Assembly (NCBI GenBank): GCA_963765205.1
Contig: CAVXVB010000009.1
Coordinates: 32,001-96,000, forward strand
Length of the DNA stretch: 64,000 nucleotides
Source: an uncultured Verrucomicrobiae bacterium
GTDB taxonomy: Bacteria; Verrucomicrobiota; Verrucomicrobiia; Opitutales; JABDGR01
Direction: 5' to 3'
The notes beneath the pieces were generated by a model that was not told where the DNA came from, ran no database searches, and saw only the letters and a program-made list of their open reading frames with translations. A program made the position numbers and the translations under genes. This document shows, one piece after another, positions 7,534 through 18,988 of this stretch; the stretch's first letter is position 1, and the number at the start of each line of letters is the position of its first letter.

Positions 7534-9144
7534 ATGAAGCCCGGCCTCAAAAACACAAGTGCGCGCAACCATCGTGCCAGGGGACTGCGCCTGTTTTTTT
7601 TTGGCGCAGCGTGGCTGGGGGTGGTGGCGCAAACCGCGGCGAATGCTCCTGCGGCCGCCGCCGGGGCGTTGCCACCCGCCGCCAAGTATGATTTTCGCAA
7701 TCCGCCCCAAGGCGTGTTCGACGATGAATGGGTCGAGATTTTCATGAGCGGCCAGAAGGTCGGCTACGGCCACCAGTTTTACAAGCGCACGGGCGACCTC
7801 ATTGAATGCGTGCAGCACCAGGAGTTTCACCTCCTGCGCCAGGAAAGCGCCATCACCATGACGGAGGACGAGACCAGCACGGAGACGCTCGACGGCCAGC
7901 CGCGCTCCTTCCATAGCTATGCCGATCTCGGCGACGCGCCGACCACCGTGGACGGCCATGGCGACGGCCACACCTTCACCATCTCGGTGCAGCAGGGCGC
8001 CTTCCGCCAGGAGCAGCAGGTGACCTTTCCCCAGGGCACGCTGATGACCTGGGGCATGGAGCGGCTCAGCCGCATCAAGGGCCTCGCGTCCGGCACCAAT
8101 TATGATTTCTTGTCCTATGATCCTTCGGCCGACGCCTTTGCGCCGCTGGCCGCGCACGCCGCCAACGGCGCGCGGGCGCCGGTGCCCATCCGCGGCCAGA
8201 CGGTCACCGCCACGCCGGTCAGCCTGCATCTGACCTCGCAGAACGGCCTCGGCAGCACCGACGCCGTGTCCTGGGTGGATGCCGACGACCGCACGGTGAA
8301 AACCTCGCTGCCCATGGGGGCGTTGTCCATGGACTTGGTGGCTGCAACGGAAGCGGAGGCGCGGGCGGATTACCTGCCGCACGATATTTTTACCGCCTCG
8401 CTGATCACCCTCGACCAGCCCCTCCCGACGGACGCCGGGACCATCACCGTGCGGCTGCGCCGCACGGATGGCCAGCCGCTGCCGCCGTTGCCCGAGTCGG
8501 CGATGGAGCGCGGCGCGGTGCTGGGCGACGGCAGCGTGCGCCTCACCCTCACGCGGCCCGAACTGGCCCGGCAACAGGCCGCCGCCGCGCCCGGCCCCGC
8601 GCTGGCCGACCCGGCGACTTACCTCGCGCGCAACTCCTGCCTCGATACCAGCGACCCGCTGGTGCGCCAGCTCGCCGCCCAGGCCGGCGGCCCGGTGGAC
8701 ACCCCGCCCAAGGTGCTCGCCGGGAAATTGCGTGATTTTGTGGCCAGCTACATTGACAAGAAGGACATGAGCGTGGGCTTCGGCACGGCGACGGAGACGG
8801 CCAAGAGCCGCGAGGGCGATTGCACGGAGCACGCCGTGCTGCTGGCCGCGCTGGCGCGGGTGCGCGGGTTGCCCGCGCGGGTGGCCAGCGGCCTGGTCTA
8901 TATGCCGCATTATGACGGGCAGGACAATGTCCTCGGCTTCCACATGTGGGCGCAATTTTATCTGGACGGGCACTGGGAGGATTACGACGCCGCGCTGACC
9001 GACGGAACGACGCCGTATTGGCGGCTGGGTTTCGTCGCCACCGACCTCAACGACGTTTCGATGTCCGATTTCACGATGCAATTGACGCGTTGGATGGCGG
9101 ATTTGAAGATTACGGTCGAGTCGAGCACGCCGGCGGGGAAGTGA
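7534..9144 (+). CDS. Secreted transglutaminase-like (papain-fold) protein
   Basis: Signal-like N-terminus; EGDCTEHAVLLAALAR..GLPARVASGL, FHMWAQFY and WEDYDA supply the Cys-His-Asp triad. Confidence 0.85.
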   Translation: MKPGLKNTSARNHRARGLRLFFFGAAWLGVVAQTAANAPAAAAGALPPAAKYDFRNPPQGVFDDEWVEIFMSGQKVGYGHQFYKRTGDLIECVQHQEFHLLRQESAITMTEDETSTETLDGQPRSFHSYADLGDAPTTVDGHGDGHTFTISVQQGAFRQEQQVTFPQGTLMTWGMERLSRIKGLASGTNYDFLSYDPSADAFAPLAAHAANGARAPVPIRGQTVTATPVSLHLTSQNGLGSTDAVSWVDADDRTVKTSLPMGALSMDLVAATEAEARADYLPHDIFTASLITLDQPLPTDAGTITVRLRRTDGQPLPPLPESAMERGAVLGDGSVRLTLTRPELARQQAAAAPGPALADPATYLARNSCLDTSDPLVRQLAAQAGGPVDTPPKVLAGKLRDFVASYIDKKDMSVGFGTATETAKSREGDCTEHAVLLAALARVRGLPARVASGLVYMPHYDGQDNVLGFHMWAQFYLDGHWEDYDAALTDGTTPYWRLGFVATDLNDVSMSDFTMQLTRWMADLKITVESSTPAGK

Positions 9145-9330
9145 GGGGGGAGGGGGGGAGGCAGAGGGGCAAAAGAGCGGAGGCGCAGGGACAGAGGGAC
9201 AAAGAGACAGAGGGAGGATTTCACCGCGAGGGTGAGGAGAATACAAAAAAGAAAACCACGGAGGGCACGGAGGACACGGAGGGCGGAGATTTATCGCGCA
9301 AAGGCGCAGGGGCGCGAAGGATGAATCGCG
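9145..9330. repeat. Intergenic cluster of 8- and 9-bp short tandem repeats
   Basis: ACAGAGGG-ACAAAGAG-ACAGAGGG, CACGGAGGG-CACGGAGGA-CACGGAGGG and CGCAAAGG-CGCAGGGG-CGCGAAGG lie between convergent genes. Confidence 0.7.
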
Positions 9331-9352
9331 GGGGGCGACGCAAGCAACGAGC

Positions 9353-10123
9353 TTACCCTGTCTGGCGCCAGCGGCCGGGGGCGGGGTGCTCGAGCAGGCC
9401 GGCGTCACGGAGGTTTTGCAATTGCTGGCGGATTTTGTCGCGAATGTGGCGATTGCCGGGGTGCAGTTTTTCGAACTGCGGCGCGAGGGCGTAGAGGTCC
9501 TGGTTGGAAAATTCGGGTTTGTGCAGGGAGCGAACCGCGGTAAGGACCTCCAGCGTCCAGCCGCGTTCAGCTACGGATAATTCCTTGAGGGGCAGAACCC
9601 GGCGATAATTTGTTCGCACCTCTTCTTCGGGAATAATGCGGCTTTCGTGGACAATCGCAATGCGCGCTTCAGCGGGAATTCGATTAAGGGCAATGTTGCA
9701 ACCGATCCAGCCGGCCCGGCGCGCGGTGGGTGATAGCGGTTTTCGTTCAATAATCGCGGAGGACGGAAAAGCAAAATGCGGAATGAGCAGCAAGTTTTTT
9801 ATGCTCCAGGCCGGAAGTTCATATTGGAGGAAATAAAAATTCGGGGTGCGGTCATGTGCGATGGAATCCATCATCGCCTGATAGGCTCCGTCGTTGACGT
9901 TATTTCCAAACCGGGACTTTTGACTTTTCAATTGATACCATGCACCACAAGCCGGACATTTGTAATCCATCGCTTTGGAATTATGCCGCAGCCGGTCCAA
10001 TTTTGGCGACGGGCAATTGGGACAATAGAGATTGTGCTCGCCCCACGATTCCGTGACCACCCGCGCTTGCTGCGCGCCGCTTTTATAATCGGCGGCAAGT
10101 TGGCTGGTCATCGACAGATTCAT
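9353..10123 (-). CDS. DpnI-like / Dam-replacing (DRP) family modification-dependent restriction endonuclease
   Basis: YKSGAQQARVVTESW, two CxxC motifs (CPNC, CPAC), D..QLKS catalytic motif, DGAYQAM, RKPLSPTARRAGWIGCNI, and the C-terminal winged-helix signature HPGNRHIRDKIRQQLQNLRDAG. Confidence 0.9.
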   Translation of the reverse strand: MNLSMTSQLAADYKSGAQQARVVTESWGEHNLYCPNCPSPKLDRLRHNSKAMDYKCPACGAWYQLKSQKSRFGNNVNDGAYQAMMDSIAHDRTPNFYFLQYELPAWSIKNLLLIPHFAFPSSAIIERKPLSPTARRAGWIGCNIALNRIPAEARIAIVHESRIIPEEEVRTNYRRVLPLKELSVAERGWTLEVLTAVRSLHKPEFSNQDLYALAPQFEKLHPGNRHIRDKIRQQLQNLRDAGLLEHPAPGRWRQTG

Positions 10124-10156
10124 CGGGGCTGAATAGATCAGCGCCCGATGATCGCA

Positions 10157-11467
10157 TCAACCTTGTTTTACCCGGAAAATTTCTGTTTCGCAGCGGATGA
10201 TATGGGTGGTTTCGCGTTTGCGACTGGTGGGGGCTTTGGCCCAGGCTTCGCAGATGCTGACGTCCACGGTGGTATGCACGACGCTGCCGGCGTTCACGTG
10301 GGCGCAACTGAGGAAGGCGAATTTCGTTTCGTGAAAGACGCGCTCGAAGTTTTGCGGTGGGCCGTTTTCCGCCATCGGGGATGAGGGATCGATCACTTCT
10401 GTAAGTAGATCAAGATCAATTTCTTTCAAAATTGTCACCTGCCAAGAGAGGCGGAAGGTTGGGCGTTCCGTCGTCACGCGAATCCAGGCCAAATCGAGAT
10501 AAATCGTTTCCATTTCCACGCCGACGCATTGGCGGCCAATCCGCACGGCCGCGAGGGCGGTGGTGCCGGAGCCGAGGAAGGGGTCGAGGACGAGGTCGCC
10601 GGGGTGGGTGGAGGTAAGGAGGCAGCGTTCGACGAGGGCGAGGGGTTTTTGGGTGGGATGCTTGCCGTGGGTTTTTTCGTCGCCGCCGGGGGCGGTGAAG
10701 CGCCAGACGGATTTCATTTGTTTGCCGCCGTTGATTTGGCGCATGTGGGCGTAGTTGAAGGTGTGTTTGCTTTTTTCGTTTTTGGCGGCCCAGATGACGG
10801 TTTCGGTGCTGTGGGTGAAGTAGCGGCAGGAGAGGTTGGGCGGGGGGTTGGGCTTTTCCCAGGTGATGTCGTTGAGGATTTTGAGGCCGAGCTGCTGCAT
10901 GGCGTAGCCGACGGAGTGGATGACGTGGTGGGTGCCGGTGACCCAGAGGGTGCCGTGGGGCTTGAGGGCGCGCTGGCAGCGTTCGAGCCAGGCGCGGTTG
11001 AACTCGTGGTTGACTTCGGGGCCGCGGGATTTGTCCCACGCGCCTTTGTCCACGCGCACCATGCGGCCGGCGTGGCAGGTGATGCCGCCGTTGGAGAGGA
11101 AGTAGGGCGGGTCGGCAAAGATGGCGTCGAAGCGGCCTTCCGGGTAGCGGAGGGCGAGGGCGTCGAGGACTTCGAGGCAATCGCCTTGGTAGAGCCAGAC
11201 GCCGGCGGTGTCGTCGCGATGGACAAGGCGGAGGGGCTGGAGGGCGCTTTCGTGGAGGGCGAGGCCGGTGAAGGGGTCGCCGGCGAGGGCGGCGGGCGTG
11301 TTCCAGCCGAGGAGTTCCTCGTCGCGCCGGGGATACCCTCCTTCGTCCCGCGCGGCGGGACTACGGAGGGCAGGGGTCTCCTGGTTCGCTTTTTTGAGTG
11401 GGCGCTTGGGGGTATTGACGCGGGCGGGCCGCGGGGCGGGATTGGGCGAGGGCGCGGGCCGTGGCAT
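10157..11467 (-). CDS. Beta-class N6-adenine DNA methyltransferase, DpnA/M2.DpnII-like, with N- and C-terminal extensions
   Basis: IFADPPYFLSNGGITCHAGRMVRVDKGAWDK, ILNDITWEKPNPPPNLSCRYFTHSTE, NGGKQMKSVW, EKTHGKHPTQKP and VLDPFLGSGTT, closely resembling DpnA-type enzymes. Confidence 0.88.
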   Translation of the reverse strand: MPRPAPSPNPAPRPARVNTPKRPLKKANQETPALRSPAARDEGGYPRRDEELLGWNTPAALAGDPFTGLALHESALQPLRLVHRDDTAGVWLYQGDCLEVLDALALRYPEGRFDAIFADPPYFLSNGGITCHAGRMVRVDKGAWDKSRGPEVNHEFNRAWLERCQRALKPHGTLWVTGTHHVIHSVGYAMQQLGLKILNDITWEKPNPPPNLSCRYFTHSTETVIWAAKNEKSKHTFNYAHMRQINGGKQMKSVWRFTAPGGDEKTHGKHPTQKPLALVERCLLTSTHPGDLVLDPFLGSGTTALAAVRIGRQCVGVEMETIYLDLAWIRVTTERPTFRLSWQVTILKEIDLDLLTEVIDPSSPMAENGPPQNFERVFHETKFAFLSCAHVNAGSVVHTTVDVSICEAWAKAPTSRKRETTHIIRCETEIFRVKQG

Positions 11468-11475
11468 GATGGGCT

Positions 11476-11488
11476 GATCGGATCGATC
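11476..11488. promoter_or_regulatory. Cluster of three GATC sites immediately upstream of the MTase start (possible methylation-sensitive control)
   Basis: GATCGGATCGATC, with GATC at 11476, 11481 and 11485, 9-21 nt from ATG 11467. Confidence 0.45.
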
Positions 11489-11551
11489 AGGCCGAAATTT
11501 GAGGCAAGACTTATTTGGGGGAAGACTTTCTCAATTCGGGCAGATGTTTAA

Positions 11552-11571
11552 AACGCTCAACGTTGAGCGTT
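11552..11571. repeat. Perfect 20-bp palindrome made of AACGCTC-type heptamers
   Basis: AACGCTCAAC|GTTGAGCGTT; the same unit family occurs at 54061-54182. Confidence 0.75.
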
Positions 11572-11608
11572 GAGGCAACTGCAGTTTTTAAGTTGCGGCG
11601 TAAAGACA

Positions 11609-13109
11609 CTATCTGGCCGCGGGCGTCGTCGGCGGGGTGGGTGCGGGGGCTGATTGGGAGAGGGGCGTGAGGGATTGCCCGGTGGCGCGGAGTTGTTTGA
11701 TGCGCCGGGCTGCGGTGGGGGCCGAACTCTTGTCTTCCTGGTCCACTTCCGACCAACGGGCGACGGAGAACAGGAGCAGCCAGAAGCCGAAAAACACGGC
11801 GGGCGAGGCGAGCGGGAAATCCACGAGGGTGAGCGCGGCGATGGCGGCGAGGCCGGCGGCGGGCGCGATGAGAAACGACGCGAGCCGGCGACGCCAGAGG
11901 ACCCGCGCGAGGAGCCACGCCGCAGGCAACCACCAGATGACGGTGCCGATAGTCCCGTGCTCGGCGAGACTTTGCCAAAAGTCCGACCGGGCGTAGGCGT
12001 AGTATTGGCCGGCCTGGCTCCGCGCCCTGGAAAAAGCTGTAAATCACGCGGAAGGAGCCGGGCCCCCAGCCGAACCACGGGCGGGCCTGCCACATGTTGC
12101 GGGTGTCTTCGAGGACGCGTTCGTGCATGGCGACGCCGCCGGAGTATTGAATCCAATCGTCCAGCGGGTAATGGATGGCAATTTGCGCGGCGAGGCCAAA
12201 GAGGGCCACGCCGGCCAGCGCCCAGGCCAAGAGGGATATGCCGGGGCCGGAGCGCTTGGTCCGGCGGCGTTCCTCGCGCGTCTGCCAGGCAATCGAGAGG
12301 CAGCCAAGGCCCGCCACGAGGGCGGCGAGGAGGCGGTAGGCCGGCTCGCCGACGACGGCGATGCTCCCGCCCAGCGCCAGGACCGCGCCGAGAAAGAGCC
12401 AGCCTTCGCCGGCGAGCCAGCGCCAGCCGCGCTGGCGCACCAGCCAGGCAATCATGCCCAGCGCCGCGCCCAGCCAGAGGAGCGCAAACGCGCACCACTG
12501 CGCGGGGTGCGGAAAGCTGGCAAAAAACTGCGGGTTGCCAATCGGGATGATCCACAGGATGGTGTCCGTGTTGCTGAAATATTGCAGCAGCCCCAGGGCC
12601 GCCAGCGCGCCGGCACCCAGGCAGAGGACGGCCCAAGTGCGCGCAAAGACCAGGCGGCTGCGGCACATGAGCCAGGCGTTCAGGCTGGTGGCAAAAACCC
12701 CGGCGACCAACAACGTTTCGACGCCCGCCACCTTGATTTGGCCCTCGACGGGCACCCAAACCGACGGCAGCGGCAATAATGCCCAGGCTTTATTTTCCCC
12801 CAGGCTGACGGTGTGGAAGGGGGGAAAGAAATGCCCGACGGCGAGCGTCGTTAGCACGAACCACACGGGCAGCATCCAGAGCAGGGCGCGCCAAAACAGC
12901 GCCCACTGGGTGCCGGCATAACTTTCGCGGTTGGCGATGAGGAGGGCGGTGCCGATGAGGCTCAAGGTCGCGACGGCGCCGGCAAAGATGGGCGCATTGC
13001 CGCCGCAGCCCACGGCGGCGATGAGGCCCAAGGCCACCCAGTGTACGCGAAAAGCCAGTTCCGATGGAGTCTCGGTCAGCGCGGGGCCGTGATGTTCGTC
13101 TTCAAACAC
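11609..13109 (-). CDS. O-antigen ligase/Wzy_C-family polytopic membrane protein, with an apparent 1-nt frameshift near 12018
   Basis: Many TM segments, MWQARPWFGWGPGSFRVIY; removing one base gives QGADQAGQYYAYARSDFWQSLAEHG and continues into LVDFPLASPA (ORF 11609..11929). GTG start at 13109 is assumed. Confidence 0.75.
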
Positions 13110-15780: not shown

Positions 15781-16692
15781 CTATGCTACTAAGGAATTAT
15801 TCCTCTTGAACAGTTCGATGGTATCCTGGCCGATTGCTATGTCCAAAATCTTTACTACAGGTCGACGGATAACCAATTCTTCCTTTGCAAGATGATGTGC
15901 TGTGCGAACTTTGACAGATTCAACTCTAAAACCTGCTTTTTCTGCCAGATCGCGAATTTTTCCATTTTGATGATAAGTTACTAGCCATGCAGCTTCTGCT
16001 GTCGCCAACGCTGAAAATATGTCAGATGGCTCAACATCGCAGCATTTATAAAGCCTCTTTCCGGGGCCCTCTCCATTGATTATGTATGGAGGATCAATAA
16101 AAAGAGCTGCTCGACTATTGGTGCAATAGACGCGCAATTGTTTTAAGCCATCTCCTTCAATTACTTTTATTCGAGGGGATAATTTTTTTAATGCCTTAAT
16201 CCTGTCACATAATGTATCAACGTACCAACGTGAACTAATGCCCTTTTCGTCTTCGCCATCACGCAGTAGACCTGCACCAGGGGCCATAACTCCACCGTAT
16301 TGGAAGCGATTACGAACCAAACATCGAAATGCAAGGGCAACGTCGTTATCCGAATCCTTACAAAGAACAGCCTCTACTTTTTTCCGAGTTGGCGAAAAGC
16401 CTCTAATCATGCTCGTTAAATTAGATGCAGATGAGCTAAAGACCACCCGCCACAAGGCAGCTACTTCAGGATCTTTTTCTACCAATACTACTTGTTTTGC
16501 CACTTTGGCGTCAGCCACTGCCAAACCTACGCTAGCACCCCCGGCAAACGGCTCAACAAAAAAGGTGGGCTGTTTGGAGAGGGATTTAAGCCATTCGAGT
16601 ATGTAACTACGCATCGCTGTTTTCCCTCCCGGATATCGAAAGGGGCTTAGCGTCCGCAGGTTTTGCGAGTAGTTGGGGCTTAGAGCAGACAT
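15781..16692 (-). CDS. Dam-family (D12 class, alpha) DNA adenine methyltransferase
   Basis: SPFRYPGGK, FVEPFAGGASV and LFIDPPY. Confidence 0.9.
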   Translation of the reverse strand: MSALSPNYSQNLRTLSPFRYPGGKTAMRSYILEWLKSLSKQPTFFVEPFAGGASVGLAVADAKVAKQVVLVEKDPEVAALWRVVFSSSASNLTSMIRGFSPTRKKVEAVLCKDSDNDVALAFRCLVRNRFQYGGVMAPGAGLLRDGEDEKGISSRWYVDTLCDRIKALKKLSPRIKVIEGDGLKQLRVYCTNSRAALFIDPPYIINGEGPGKRLYKCCDVEPSDIFSALATAEAAWLVTYHQNGKIRDLAEKAGFRVESVKVRTAHHLAKEELVIRRPVVKILDIAIGQDTIELFKRNNSLVA

Positions 16693-16704
16693 TTATAGCA
16701 ACGC

Positions 16705-17700
16705 TTAAAGATCAAGTCCTTTGCTGGCACCTGCTGCTTTAGTCCAGCTTTGGCATCGTTTTAAGAGATCATCCGGAATTTTGTCGGCGTGTTGAATAAT
16801 TCGACAACGGTCAAAAAATACGCCTCCATCTGAAGCATGGTCGTAGCGGTCCGTTGATACTCGAGCTGCAGTAAAGAACAGCTTTATTGGGGTAACGGCA
16901 AATGATTCAGTAATGAATTTCTTACTAAACGAATATGGGTCTAGCTCCGATAACCCATCACTCCAATGTCGGCCAGTTTTACATTGTCCGAATGCGATCA
17001 ACTTTCCGGGATGGTTATCAAAAAATTTCCGCCAAACAACTACATCAACCTTAGCGTCTTTGGGACGAATTCTCGCCCCGACGCGCTTTGGCTTAAAATC
17101 GCCGCCCTCTCCGAGGGATTTGCATAAAGCGGAAACGTTTTGCGCAAAAGCACTCCGTGTGCAGCCCTCTGTGTTTTCCCAGTTGAGGGTTTGGCGTGCT
17201 GTGCCAAAGAGCATTGATCCAACTCTGATTTTATCAGGGCCGCCTAAGTAACGAATGGCAGCATGCAAACAAATCTCCTCAAAAAGCTGAGTGCCATCTA
17301 GGCGTGCTTGCTTCTTCTCTAGTCGCATATCAAGTCGAGATGTCAATAGAAGAAACCAATACAGGAACTGATACGATTGACCGCCCCATTTTTTTTTAAG
17401 AATTAACAAGTCGTTTTTCAAGGAATACGGGTAGTATTTGTTGCAATGCCCAAACTCCAAGCCGCGTTCTTCCAATTCAGAAATTGCTTCTTCAGCGGCA
17501 TTTTCTGATGTTCGGTCATTCGAAACGCCACCATAGGTTTGGGCATCTTCAGATTCGTCTTCGCCATCTCGCTGGGTAATTTCAATGTAGTCCTGCTCTG
17601 ACGATCCAAGTAGTGGATCGCGCAAAGCCAGCAATTCTAAATAGTCACCACGCTCTTCTCGTGGTGCATGGCTAGTCGGTGATATTGGAAAAGCCGGCAT
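16705..17700 (-). CDS. Putative PD-(D/E)XK restriction-endonuclease-fold protein
   Basis: KDAKVDVVVW...LIAFGQCKTG resembles an Mrr-type D..QxK active site; GVFFDRCRI. Confidence 0.6.
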   Translation of the reverse strand: MPAFPISPTSHAPREERGDYLELLALRDPLLGSSEQDYIEITQRDGEDESEDAQTYGGVSNDRTSENAAEEAISELEERGLEFGHCNKYYPYSLKNDLLILKKKWGGQSYQFLYWFLLLTSRLDMRLEKKQARLDGTQLFEEICLHAAIRYLGGPDKIRVGSMLFGTARQTLNWENTEGCTRSAFAQNVSALCKSLGEGGDFKPKRVGARIRPKDAKVDVVVWRKFFDNHPGKLIAFGQCKTGRHWSDGLSELDPYSFSKKFITESFAVTPIKLFFTAARVSTDRYDHASDGGVFFDRCRIIQHADKIPDDLLKRCQSWTKAAGASKGLDL

Positions 17701-17712
17701 AAATCCGCTGGA

Positions 17713-18864
17713 TTATTCGTGGTGAGATTTTTTCGTCAAATCCCGTTGCCGACGCTTCATTGACTCTTCCAAATCTGTCGCCATTTCCAGTATTTTTTCA
17801 GAAAGCTTTAAGTCGCCTTCGTTTCCATCATACCCACTTGTAACGCGGGCTTGGGCACTCATAAGACTCGCTTTGGTTTTTTGCAGTGCTTCACGAAACA
17901 CACGTTCGTCACCCTTGCTTGTCTCGAATGCGATACTTAGGGGTTCACCACGACGAAGACATGCAATCGAAGATTCATTTTTTAGGACTTGTTCAAGATT
18001 TCTCAAATCGGGATTTTGAGACTGTATAACTGGTTGAATGTTGCCTCTTTTGTCGCCCCAGAGCCACAGGCAAAGCTCACCAAGATTTTTAATATTTCCT
18101 ACAGGCTCACGTCGCTCTGCCGAGGCTTCCGCGATTTTGAGAAACTTCGCATAGCCGTCATAATCTAATGCGGTCATAAGGTGAGAAAAGGCAATCCGGC
18201 CACGAAAACTCCATTCGCGATTATAAGCGCCTGATTTTTCTGCTTGTTGCAATACCATCAAAGCTCGAAAAAGTCGCTGGACAGTTTTATTTCGATCGCC
18301 AATCTGGCGAGCAATTTCATCCAAAGGGGTTTTGTATTCATTATGTACCCTGGCAATGTATTCTGCTTTTGCAAAACTGCGCCATTTGGCGGGCCCATTT
18401 AAATGCTTAAAGCCAACATGTCGCCAGAGCACCTTTCGGTTGTCGAAAATGCAAACAGGTAACTTTTTAAGTGACTTGAGCACATTTGGCTCTACCCGAA
18501 CCAACTGTGATAACCCAAGGGCCTGAGCCAGCTTTGGCTTAAAAAATGCCTTAACAGCAGCTAAACGACGATTCCCTTCGACCACGACACACTGGCCTTT
18601 TTCCATAACAGCAAGAAGGGGCTCGTAATCCCAAAACCCATCAGTCGCAATGGACATGGCTACTTCATCGACAGCCATGTGCTGCCAAAGAAGTTTGATA
18701 TGTTCATCTTCAGATAGCTTAGCGATACCCTCAAACTCTGCCATACGTGGATTTTGCGGGTCTAGTCTTAAGTCGTTCACGTCCATAGCCTTAACAAGAT
18801 GCGCGGGCAATTCTTCAGCCTTATGCGGCAAATCGTCAGTGGCAACTTTATTTGAAATAGGCAT
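17713..18864 (-). CDS. ParB/Srx-like N-terminal domain protein with HTH
   Basis: LRLDPQNPRM, SIATDGF..EPL, VVVEGNRRLAA and the HTH-like segment LDEIARQIGDRNKTVQRL; start MPISNK at 18864 is assumed. Confidence 0.78.
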   Translation of the reverse strand: MPISNKVATDDLPHKAEELPAHLVKAMDVNDLRLDPQNPRMAEFEGIAKLSEDEHIKLLWQHMAVDEVAMSIATDGFWDYEPLLAVMEKGQCVVVEGNRRLAAVKAFFKPKLAQALGLSQLVRVEPNVLKSLKKLPVCIFDNRKVLWRHVGFKHLNGPAKWRSFAKAEYIARVHNEYKTPLDEIARQIGDRNKTVQRLFRALMVLQQAEKSGAYNREWSFRGRIAFSHLMTALDYDGYAKFLKIAEASAERREPVGNIKNLGELCLWLWGDKRGNIQPVIQSQNPDLRNLEQVLKNESSIACLRRGEPLSIAFETSKGDERVFREALQKTKASLMSAQARVTSGYDGNEGDLKLSEKILEMATDLEESMKRRQRDLTKKSHHE

Positions 18865-18988
18865 GGGGCCCTCTTCGGTGGAAGACGGTGAATTGAATTG
18901 TCTTCTTATTCTCACACATCAAATAGAAATGGCGCAAGTTCAATCCCCTCCATGGCCTGTTAGCAGGAACATGCTGAATAAGGCGATT

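Follow-up and report, generated by a model that had tools for sequence, protein, structure and literature searches.

The stretch of DNA analyzed here (the window) comprises 64,000 nucleotides (nt) from an uncultured Verrucomicrobiae bacterium (contig CAVXVB010000009.1, positions 32,001 to 96,000) and carries a cassette in which a presumed GATC adenine methylase directly precedes a DpnI-family nuclease, that is, a putative writer and a putative cutter of one and the same mark. Both genes lie on the minus strand, the methylase open reading frame (ORF; 10157-11467, 436 amino acids [aa]) first and the nuclease ORF (9353-10123, 256 aa) second, and both are intact. The first-pass annotation, made from the sequence alone, had reported such an adjacent, same-strand pair 33 nt apart, with no DpnII-type restriction endonuclease or DpnM nearby and with QLK in the nuclease where DpnI has ELK. 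All three observations held: the ORFs, Pfam, PADLOC, and comparison with the R.DpnI structure 4esj agree on the pair, neither DpnM nor the DpnII endonuclease was found at the locus, and no DpnII match was found in the source genome (4.0 Mb, 92% complete). We therefore do not class the locus as a DpnII system. Two features go beyond that first description, namely, a domain fused in frame to the methylase, here called X, and arrays of GATC sites at the gene starts.

The nuclease consists of a Zn-binding PD-(D/E)XK domain plus a winged helix (wH) at the C terminus, as expected of the DpnI family. It matches DpnI (PF06044) with 206 bits and DpnI_C (PF17726) with 76 bits, both above cut-off, the PADLOC model mREase_II with an E value of 8e-74, and 4esj with 219 bits over residues 2-254, including the four Zn cysteines. 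The catalytic and methyl-reading residues of R.DpnI were taken from PMC3424567 and PMC4117772. The window nuclease has all of R126, L129, R135, W138, G140, K229, R231, Q232, and Q235 and differs at S17A and E228D. The suggestion in the first-pass annotation that one partner had changed its specificity thus finds no support on the nuclease side, where the methyl-reading residues are retained. In the catalytic triad D53-E64-K66, D53 and K66 are present and E64 is replaced by Q. A tree of 38 nucleases, from which the duplicates L002-L005 and the partial sequences L029 and L031 were omitted, placed 30 Q64 rows in one clade with 100/100 support, leaving eight stand-alone rows, all with E64; this E/Q contrast is based on the 38 tree rows, 80 metagenome loci, and 120 listed proteins picked by likeness to the Q clade. 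The clade also contains L006, from a genome without a close methylase match. None of the 38 rows departs from E25, D53, or K66, the nine residues listed above are conserved in every row that covers them, and N48 and D78 vary in sub-clades. The ratio of nonsynonymous to synonymous substitution rates (dN/dS) of the nuclease is about 0.08-0.10 where dS was unsaturated (one of three comparisons was saturated). An invariant Q amid an otherwise invariant site suggests a changed but working catalytic center. QxK is found in active nucleases of the Mrr and MspJI types.

The methylase is a beta-class adenine methylase of the DpnA family. Its core (about 10466-11200) matches PF01555 with 188 bits over residues 114-327, contains DPPY, and has CcrM as its best Protein Data Bank (PDB) match. 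In the plasmid database, a neisserial gene matched best (56.7%), ahead of the second methylase encoded by the three-gene restriction operon of pSRQ700 (52.5% identity to the core). We take this operon to be LlaDCHI, a DpnII-type GATC system, and its second methylase to be a DpnA homolog. The beta-class N6_N4 fold, the DPPY motif, and the high identity to second methylases of DpnII-type operons place the enzyme in the DpnA type. It presumably writes N6-methyladenine (m6A) at GATC in duplex DNA, to which the GATC arrays and the MutH-family partner of a close homolog point indirectly. The N-terminal arm is basic and variable, and AlphaFold predicted the core of the full protein confidently but X and the arm with low confidence. 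The core has a dN/dS of about 0.09-0.22 in pairwise comparisons with three relatives. Beyond the core lies a conserved C-terminal extension of about 100 aa. A frameshift or read-through origin of this extension was rejected, since it is conserved, in frame, and under purifying selection. In many methylase-X proteins (P0011-P0121), variable in-frame insertions occupy two or three fixed positions and resemble translated repeat elements, and the reading frame into X is preserved despite insertions of many lengths.

As to other enzymes of this kind in the source genome, there are eight PF01555 matches and a single, weak Dam-family match, a PD-Lambda-5-like gene within the window; local tblastn, with the queries tried, turned up nothing similar to Dam, MutH, BglII, or PDDEXK_11. 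GATC is the 5th most avoided of the 256 tetramers in this genome (observed/expected, 0.69). GTAC is very strongly avoided there (0.23), and GTCGAC, CACGTG, CAGCTG, and GAGCTC are avoided as well. The PD-Lambda-5-like gene belongs to a neighboring three-gene island of low GC content (about 0.46) beside ksgA (15781-18915, minus strand), which holds a PD-Lambda-5_A-like gene, a 331-aa gene without a Pfam or PADLOC match, and a PD-Lambda-5_B-like D12 methylase. On the other side of the cassette, between the nuclease and a convergent transglutaminase-like gene, lies a purine-skewed spacer with short repeated words (9145-9352), within which several contigs terminate; contigs from four DNA runs added nothing.

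Domain X comprises the last 72 aa of the methylase ORF, from Met365 on (10157-10375, minus strand), and this internal Met is invariant in 6 of 6 aligned sequences. Three strands and one helix are predicted, in the order beta-beta-alpha-beta, with a predicted local distance difference test score of 87 when X is folded alone. Pairwise dN/dS against three relatives is 0.13-0.23. Searches of X against Pfam, NCBIfam, and PDB sequences gave no match, the Atlas gave no usable one, and the best results were an E value of 0.16 for viral structures in Foldseek and a Z score of 3.9 in VIA. The fold leads (eL20, phi29 p6, and T7 Gp2) are all weak, including p6 (Z, 3.6; root mean square deviation [rmsd], 5.8; 65 aligned residues) and Gp2 (Z, 2.7; rmsd, 4.1; 51 aligned residues) in VIA. 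These blank family and fold searches do not show that X is a new fold. A search with the C-terminal extension returned 307 clusters among 320 candidates, and PF01555 is present in 119 of the 120 listed; 90 X clusters are short, some of them being pieces from contig ends. A second lineage has a divergent homolog of X (hhalign, 91%, E value of 9e-7), for which the Atlas gave a score of 0.81 to PF16857, a lead only. At one locus (L053), X and the GATC array preceding it are present and the methylase is absent from the 4 kb upstream. X is likely also made as a free protein, from the array-bearing element described next.

Nine of the ten GATC sites in the region 9000-12000 fall into three clusters, and these lie at gene starts. 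The first, P1 (11476-11507, minus strand), is a promoter-like element upstream of the methylase start, with a -35-like TTGCCT (11507-11502) and GATC at 11485, 11481, and 11476, the last ending 8 nt 5' of the methylase ATG. It is the only site with three GATC in 15 bp in the 4.0-Mb genome. The second, P2 (10387-10419, minus strand), is an array of four GATC within the methylase reading frame, 11 nt 5' of the internal Met of X, and is one of three sites in the genome with four GATC in 35 bp. Related loci keep both: at least three GATC in 45 nt were found at P1 in 36 of the 36 loci with room for them, compared to 1.4% of random 800-nt stretches, and at least three at P2 in 40 of 40 loci, compared to 0.2% of random stretches, although these loci are kin and the counts hence measure conservation rather than independent origins. 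At P2, Asp codons before C are GAT in 86 cases and GAC in 2, compared to 12:124 in the methylase core and 1489:6370 in 1025 genome ORFs. This skew is synonymous, and GATC at P2 is therefore selected at the DNA level. Elsewhere in the cassette GATC is scarce, with observed/expected values of 0.19 in the methylase core, 0.10 in X, and 0.35 in the nuclease, compared to 0.73 in the flanks.

The third cluster, P3 (10132-10160, minus strand), is a promoter-like element upstream of the nuclease. Its -35 side, TTGATG, overlaps the methylase stop and is followed by a 17-nt spacer and an extended -10-like TG-A-TCTATT, which contains the GATC at 10136 and is separated by 8 nt from the nuclease ATG; a second GATC lies at 10150. 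Metagenome loci have GATC within 25 nt of the nuclease start in 66 of 77 cases and TGATCTAAT in 58 of 77. The P3 GATC persists at 20 of the 22 loci whose methylase is intact, compared to 13 of the 21 whose methylase is not (Fisher p, 0.034), a p value overstated by kinship, the compared lists being hand-picked and their members not independent. The second lineage has the same three-element layout; its P1 reads TTGACA-17-AACGAT, with GATC on both sides of the -10. Taken by their sequences, P1 to P3 resemble sigma-70 promoters of near-leaderless genes.

We then consider how far the pairing is conserved. Relatives of the cassette are labeled Verrucomicrobiota/Opitutales. Among 61 related genomes, eight have a nuclease match and five the same pair; in a phylum sample, a DpnI match was found in 14 of 401. 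X was found at 50 GTDB loci, with the methylase directly upstream in 40, and at 36 of the 50 methylase and X are unbroken in one frame over the part seen; L066 is frameshifted. The nuclease lies within 120 nt at 15 of these 50 loci, and in 14 of the 15 the methylase-X ORF is unbroken, so that, as in the window, the nuclease gene does not stand alone as is usual in the DpnI family. At 17 more X loci, nuclease sequence lies farther downstream, behind inserted genes. When metagenomes were scanned with the nuclease alignment and the best 80 of 568 matches were kept, the methylase or X was visible at 34 of the 43 loci having at least 1.5 kb upstream. Many of these metagenome loci belong to the second lineage. 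Two source names place this lineage in Acidobacteriota. The placement is weak because two other NCBI records with such a label (L052 and L053) grouped with Verrucomicrobiae when the class and the order were searched; on the other hand, the 301 and 251 genomes covered by those searches included none more than 60% identical to the second lineage.

In a class sample of 301 evenly drawn genomes, 18 have the nuclease, 15 of the Q type and 3 of the E type. Apart from those with an intact methylase-X upstream, seven Q-type loci retain remnants in the form of X tails, the beginning of a methylase, or a GATC cluster, and six have nothing in the stretch fetched, several of these being short contigs. The 13 Q-type genomes lacking an intact neighboring methylase were searched whole, mostly as incomplete metagenome-assembled genomes; a close methylase was found in two, one with an internal stop and one partial, and in none of the other 11, one of which (G116/G558) is a single contig. 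Conversely, G451 and G453 have an intact X and no DpnI match in the genome. Where methylase homologs lack X, their partners are MutH-family, PDDEXK_11, or DUF6996/6997 genes; homologs with X have BglII-family partners. In two same-genus methylases without X, either the P1 array is lost and a MutH-family nuclease follows (L010, genome G001), or P1 is kept and a PDDEXK_11 gene and a DpnI C-terminal remnant follow (L011, genome G002). Because solitary Q-type nucleases occur along with methylases paired with other nucleases, the cassette is ancestral to the clade and has frequently decayed in both directions. The conservation that the first-pass annotation had made a check on the pairing is thus present among close relatives and at X loci and largely missing from the evenly drawn sample, as detailed below.

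The junction between X and the nuclease (L037-L081) is also a hotspot for defense cargo, including AIPR, KAP NTPase, DndB-like, GmrSD_N, TIR, DUF4357, and BglII-family genes and Dam with DUF6996/6997. In L086 and L203 the 3' tail of X is duplicated around the insertion. At three loci a protein of about 250 aa takes the place of the nuclease after X (L041:4213-4962, L063:3825-4586, and L069:1329-2096); it has no Pfam match (L041 and L063 were scanned), its N terminus resembles a winged-helix reader, and in L100 a similar stretch is fused to the methylase tail. Phage or plasmid carriage of the cassette found no support: a pattern-based search of viral contigs, sensitive to close relatives only, gave no relative of X or the nuclease, and the only two plasmid matches were chromosome-sized Neisseria records.

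A mark's writer and its cutter must act at different times or in different cells if both are to be kept, and GATC at every gene start suggests that the two are coupled through transcription. Since the tested precedents of promoter methylation are cases of repression, we favor silencing and see about an even chance that the cassette is a self-silencing epigenetic switch, in which the methylase would mark GATC and keep the nuclease gene off. Indeed, PcaII, a methyl-dependent nuclease of Pectobacterium carotovorum, is silenced through one methylation site in the extended -10 of its gene (PMC8989522), and the CfrBI, AhdI, and LlaDII methylases repress their own promoters (PMC12707154). By analogy, m6A at P3, in the predicted extended -10, and at P2 would keep the nuclease gene and free X from being transcribed, and P1 marks would tune the methylase itself. 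If methylation stopped, through a switch to the off state, inhibition, or gene loss, replication would make the cell's own sites hemimethylated and then unmethylated. Such sites would be poor substrates or none, and the nuclease would come on without killing, as its self-targets vanish by passive demethylation and hemimethylated GATC is a poor DpnI substrate (PMC12707154). A cell with active nuclease could restrict GATC-methylated phage or plasmid DNA, and one locus would supply both the marked state and the mark-cutting state. Solitary intact nucleases are common after methylase loss, which is expected if this loss is survivable. More speculatively, free X might maintain the unmarked state through a block on the methylase or on P1, and the E64Q change might weaken the nuclease and so make switching survivable.

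A stronger form of the switch, which we hold to be rather less probable, would make the locus a heritable, bistable immunity toggle. In the marked state, the nuclease and free X would be silenced; without marks, a methylation-sensing promoter within the methylase gene would supply free X, which would keep the methylase shut down, and GATC-methylated DNA would meanwhile be destroyed by the nuclease. Phage from marked siblings would then be cut in unmarked siblings, reproducing the pneumococcal DpnI/DpnII polymorphism within one clone and without mutation.

Several points weigh against the self-silencing switch. We infer the sign of promoter control by methylation from the analogous systems named above. 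A sigma-70 consensus scan called none of P1 to P3 and found one unrelated site. The -10 of P3 has C where sigma-70 promoters normally have A (-11), so that P3 may be a weak promoter when it is not methylated. At two loci (L046 and L048), the gene that follows the P3-like element is of the BglII family and is not the nuclease, an arrangement that fits activation better if that enzyme cuts unmarked sites. Furthermore, if marks repress P1, the unmarked state would be unstable without an extra blocker, for which free X is the candidate. The nuclease itself could be dead, since E64A inactivates R.DpnI (PMC3424567). Finally, an intact methylase-X lies upstream of only 2 of the 15 Q-type nucleases of the class sample, and the full cassette is therefore a minority among them.

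Some of these points would be explained by a methylation-triggered suicide amplifier, an alternative that we consider unlikely. Here the resting cell would be unmarked and the cassette quiet; a Dam-type methylase of an incoming phage or plasmid would mark the arrays, the marks would turn on P1, in a positive feedback, and P3, and host and invader DNA would be both marked and cut in an abortive infection. P1 to P3 have a common layout that would allow a response of the same sign in each, Dam homologs are present in numerous phages (PMC12707154), and the off-consensus -10 of P3, its counterpart before the BglII-family gene, and the retention of its GATC in loci with a lost or broken methylase all suit such a scheme. 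Against it, close homologs of the methylase, some with the P1 array, occur in restriction-modification (RM)-like pairs with MutH-family or PDDEXK_11 genes, where the methylase should be on, and promoter methylation as described for RM systems represses (CfrBI, AhdI, LlaDII, and PcaII; PMC12707154, PMC8989522). A scheme in which the methylase tags single-stranded DNA (ssDNA) for destruction, put forward in the first-pass annotation, was rejected as the main explanation: marking ssDNA yields a hemimethylated duplex, the poor DpnI substrate mentioned above (PMC12707154), and the selected GATC arrays lie in chromosomal promoter-like sites.

The E64Q change raises the further alternative, which we judge distinctly improbable, that the Q64 protein cuts inefficiently, binds the marked arrays, and represses the operon, forming a feedback loop between writer and reader. 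Q64 is found in 30 of 30 clade members and E in 8 of 8 outside, E64 of R.DpnI ligates the catalytic metal (PMC4117772), its loss by E64A is inactivating (PMC3424567), and paired GATC sites would suit two GATC-binding domains; but invariant E25, D53, and K66 are not expected of a dead site, solitary Q-type genes remain intact without a methylase, and a benefit to the host is not evident. The first-pass annotation had also proposed a conditional suicide or addiction module. A regulated module fits the locus, whereas the addiction form, with X as the antidote, is less likely and in our estimate quite improbable. It supposes that the genome is marked and the nuclease produced but kept inactive by the direct action of both fused and free X, until X is eliminated under phage stress. 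X does directly precede the nuclease and has its own start, and a full-length X remnant or X tail stands beside the nuclease at several loci that lost the methylase, yet X is intact in the two genomes without a DpnI match, and the GATC at P3 would be left unexplained. We give the least credence to an ordinary type II RM pair, very improbable in our view, in which the nuclease would cut unmethylated GATC, or the methylase would mark another site or only ssDNA, and no conflict would arise. The order of methylase and nuclease and methylation-coupled promoters are typical of RM systems, and DpnA acts on ssDNA (PMC3812788). Nevertheless, the methyl-pocket residues L129, R135, W138, and G140 and the wH residues K229, R231, Q232, and Q235 are all kept, the arrays consist of GATC, and a cutter of unmarked GATC would be lethal in the 11 of 13 genomes, mostly incomplete assemblies, in which the nuclease is intact and no close methylase was found.

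The self-silencing switch has its nearest counterpart in PcaI/PcaII, in which a methylase and a nuclease cutting its mark also share one genome and the nuclease gene has a methylation site within its extended -10 (PMC8989522); in the present cassette, such a position is predicted for the GATC in a TG-n-hexamer 17 nt from a TTGA box. In that system the genes are separate, the mark is 5-methylcytosine, the nuclease is of the HNH type, and the methylase has a cognate restriction endonuclease; the present cassette is one co-inherited unit with three GATC elements and X and without a cognate endonuclease for unmethylated sites. Silencing was shown for PcaII (PMC8989522) and would apply to the present cassette by analogy. 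RM systems with promoter methylation (CfrBI, AhdI, and LlaDII) and the Dam switch opvAB likewise have their own target sites in promoters, with several GATC per control region. In the RM systems, the nuclease under control is one that attacks unmarked DNA; in the Dam switches, a separate regulator is employed and surface genes are the target, rather than a methylase and a nuclease that cuts its mark. The agn43 and pap switches are Dam dependent as well.

With R.DpnI of Streptococcus pneumoniae and the neisserial Drg (type IIM, Gm6ATC), the window nuclease shares the domain order, the Zn site, E25/D53/K66, the methyl pocket, and the wH residues, but unlike them it has E64Q and a linked intact methylase. 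In Neisseria gonorrhoeae, the E-type drg (L209:1500-3220) lies upstream of a DpnA-like gene with an internal stop, in the opposite order and without X or arrays (PMC4269198). Compared with this, invasion by a nuclease that kills the methylase, as in Neisseria, does not fit the window locus. Similarly, a survey of winged-helix fusion nucleases described the 6mA/4mC methylases adjoining PD-(D/E)XK-wH genes as frameshifted (PMC11037411). The second methylase of DpnII-type operons (dpnM-dpnA-dpnB; pSRQ700) shares the beta-class core with the window methylase, whose genome lacks a DpnM/DpnII partner and which differs in having X as a fused part and GATC arrays at the gene start; over 5.4 kb of the pSRQ700 stretch, GATC occurs just three times, at scattered positions. 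No description of this cassette was found in the literature searched, which covered few subscription papers and no supplements; within that literature, the cassette is new and is built from known parts plus the unknown domain X.

To our knowledge, methyl-directed nucleases have been taken as stand-alone enzymes that exclude the methylase of their mark. Related cassettes nevertheless keep both writer and cutter under purifying selection, wired through GATC-bearing gene starts and a domain of no matched family. The cassette also offers a natural E64Q DpnI and compact, putatively methylation-sensing promoters as tools. If the self-silencing switch is true, these soil bacteria would have an immune system whose own epigenetic mark, once read, decides which of two opposite restriction states is adopted, and the complementary DpnI/DpnII population defense would become testable with one 2.2-kb cassette.

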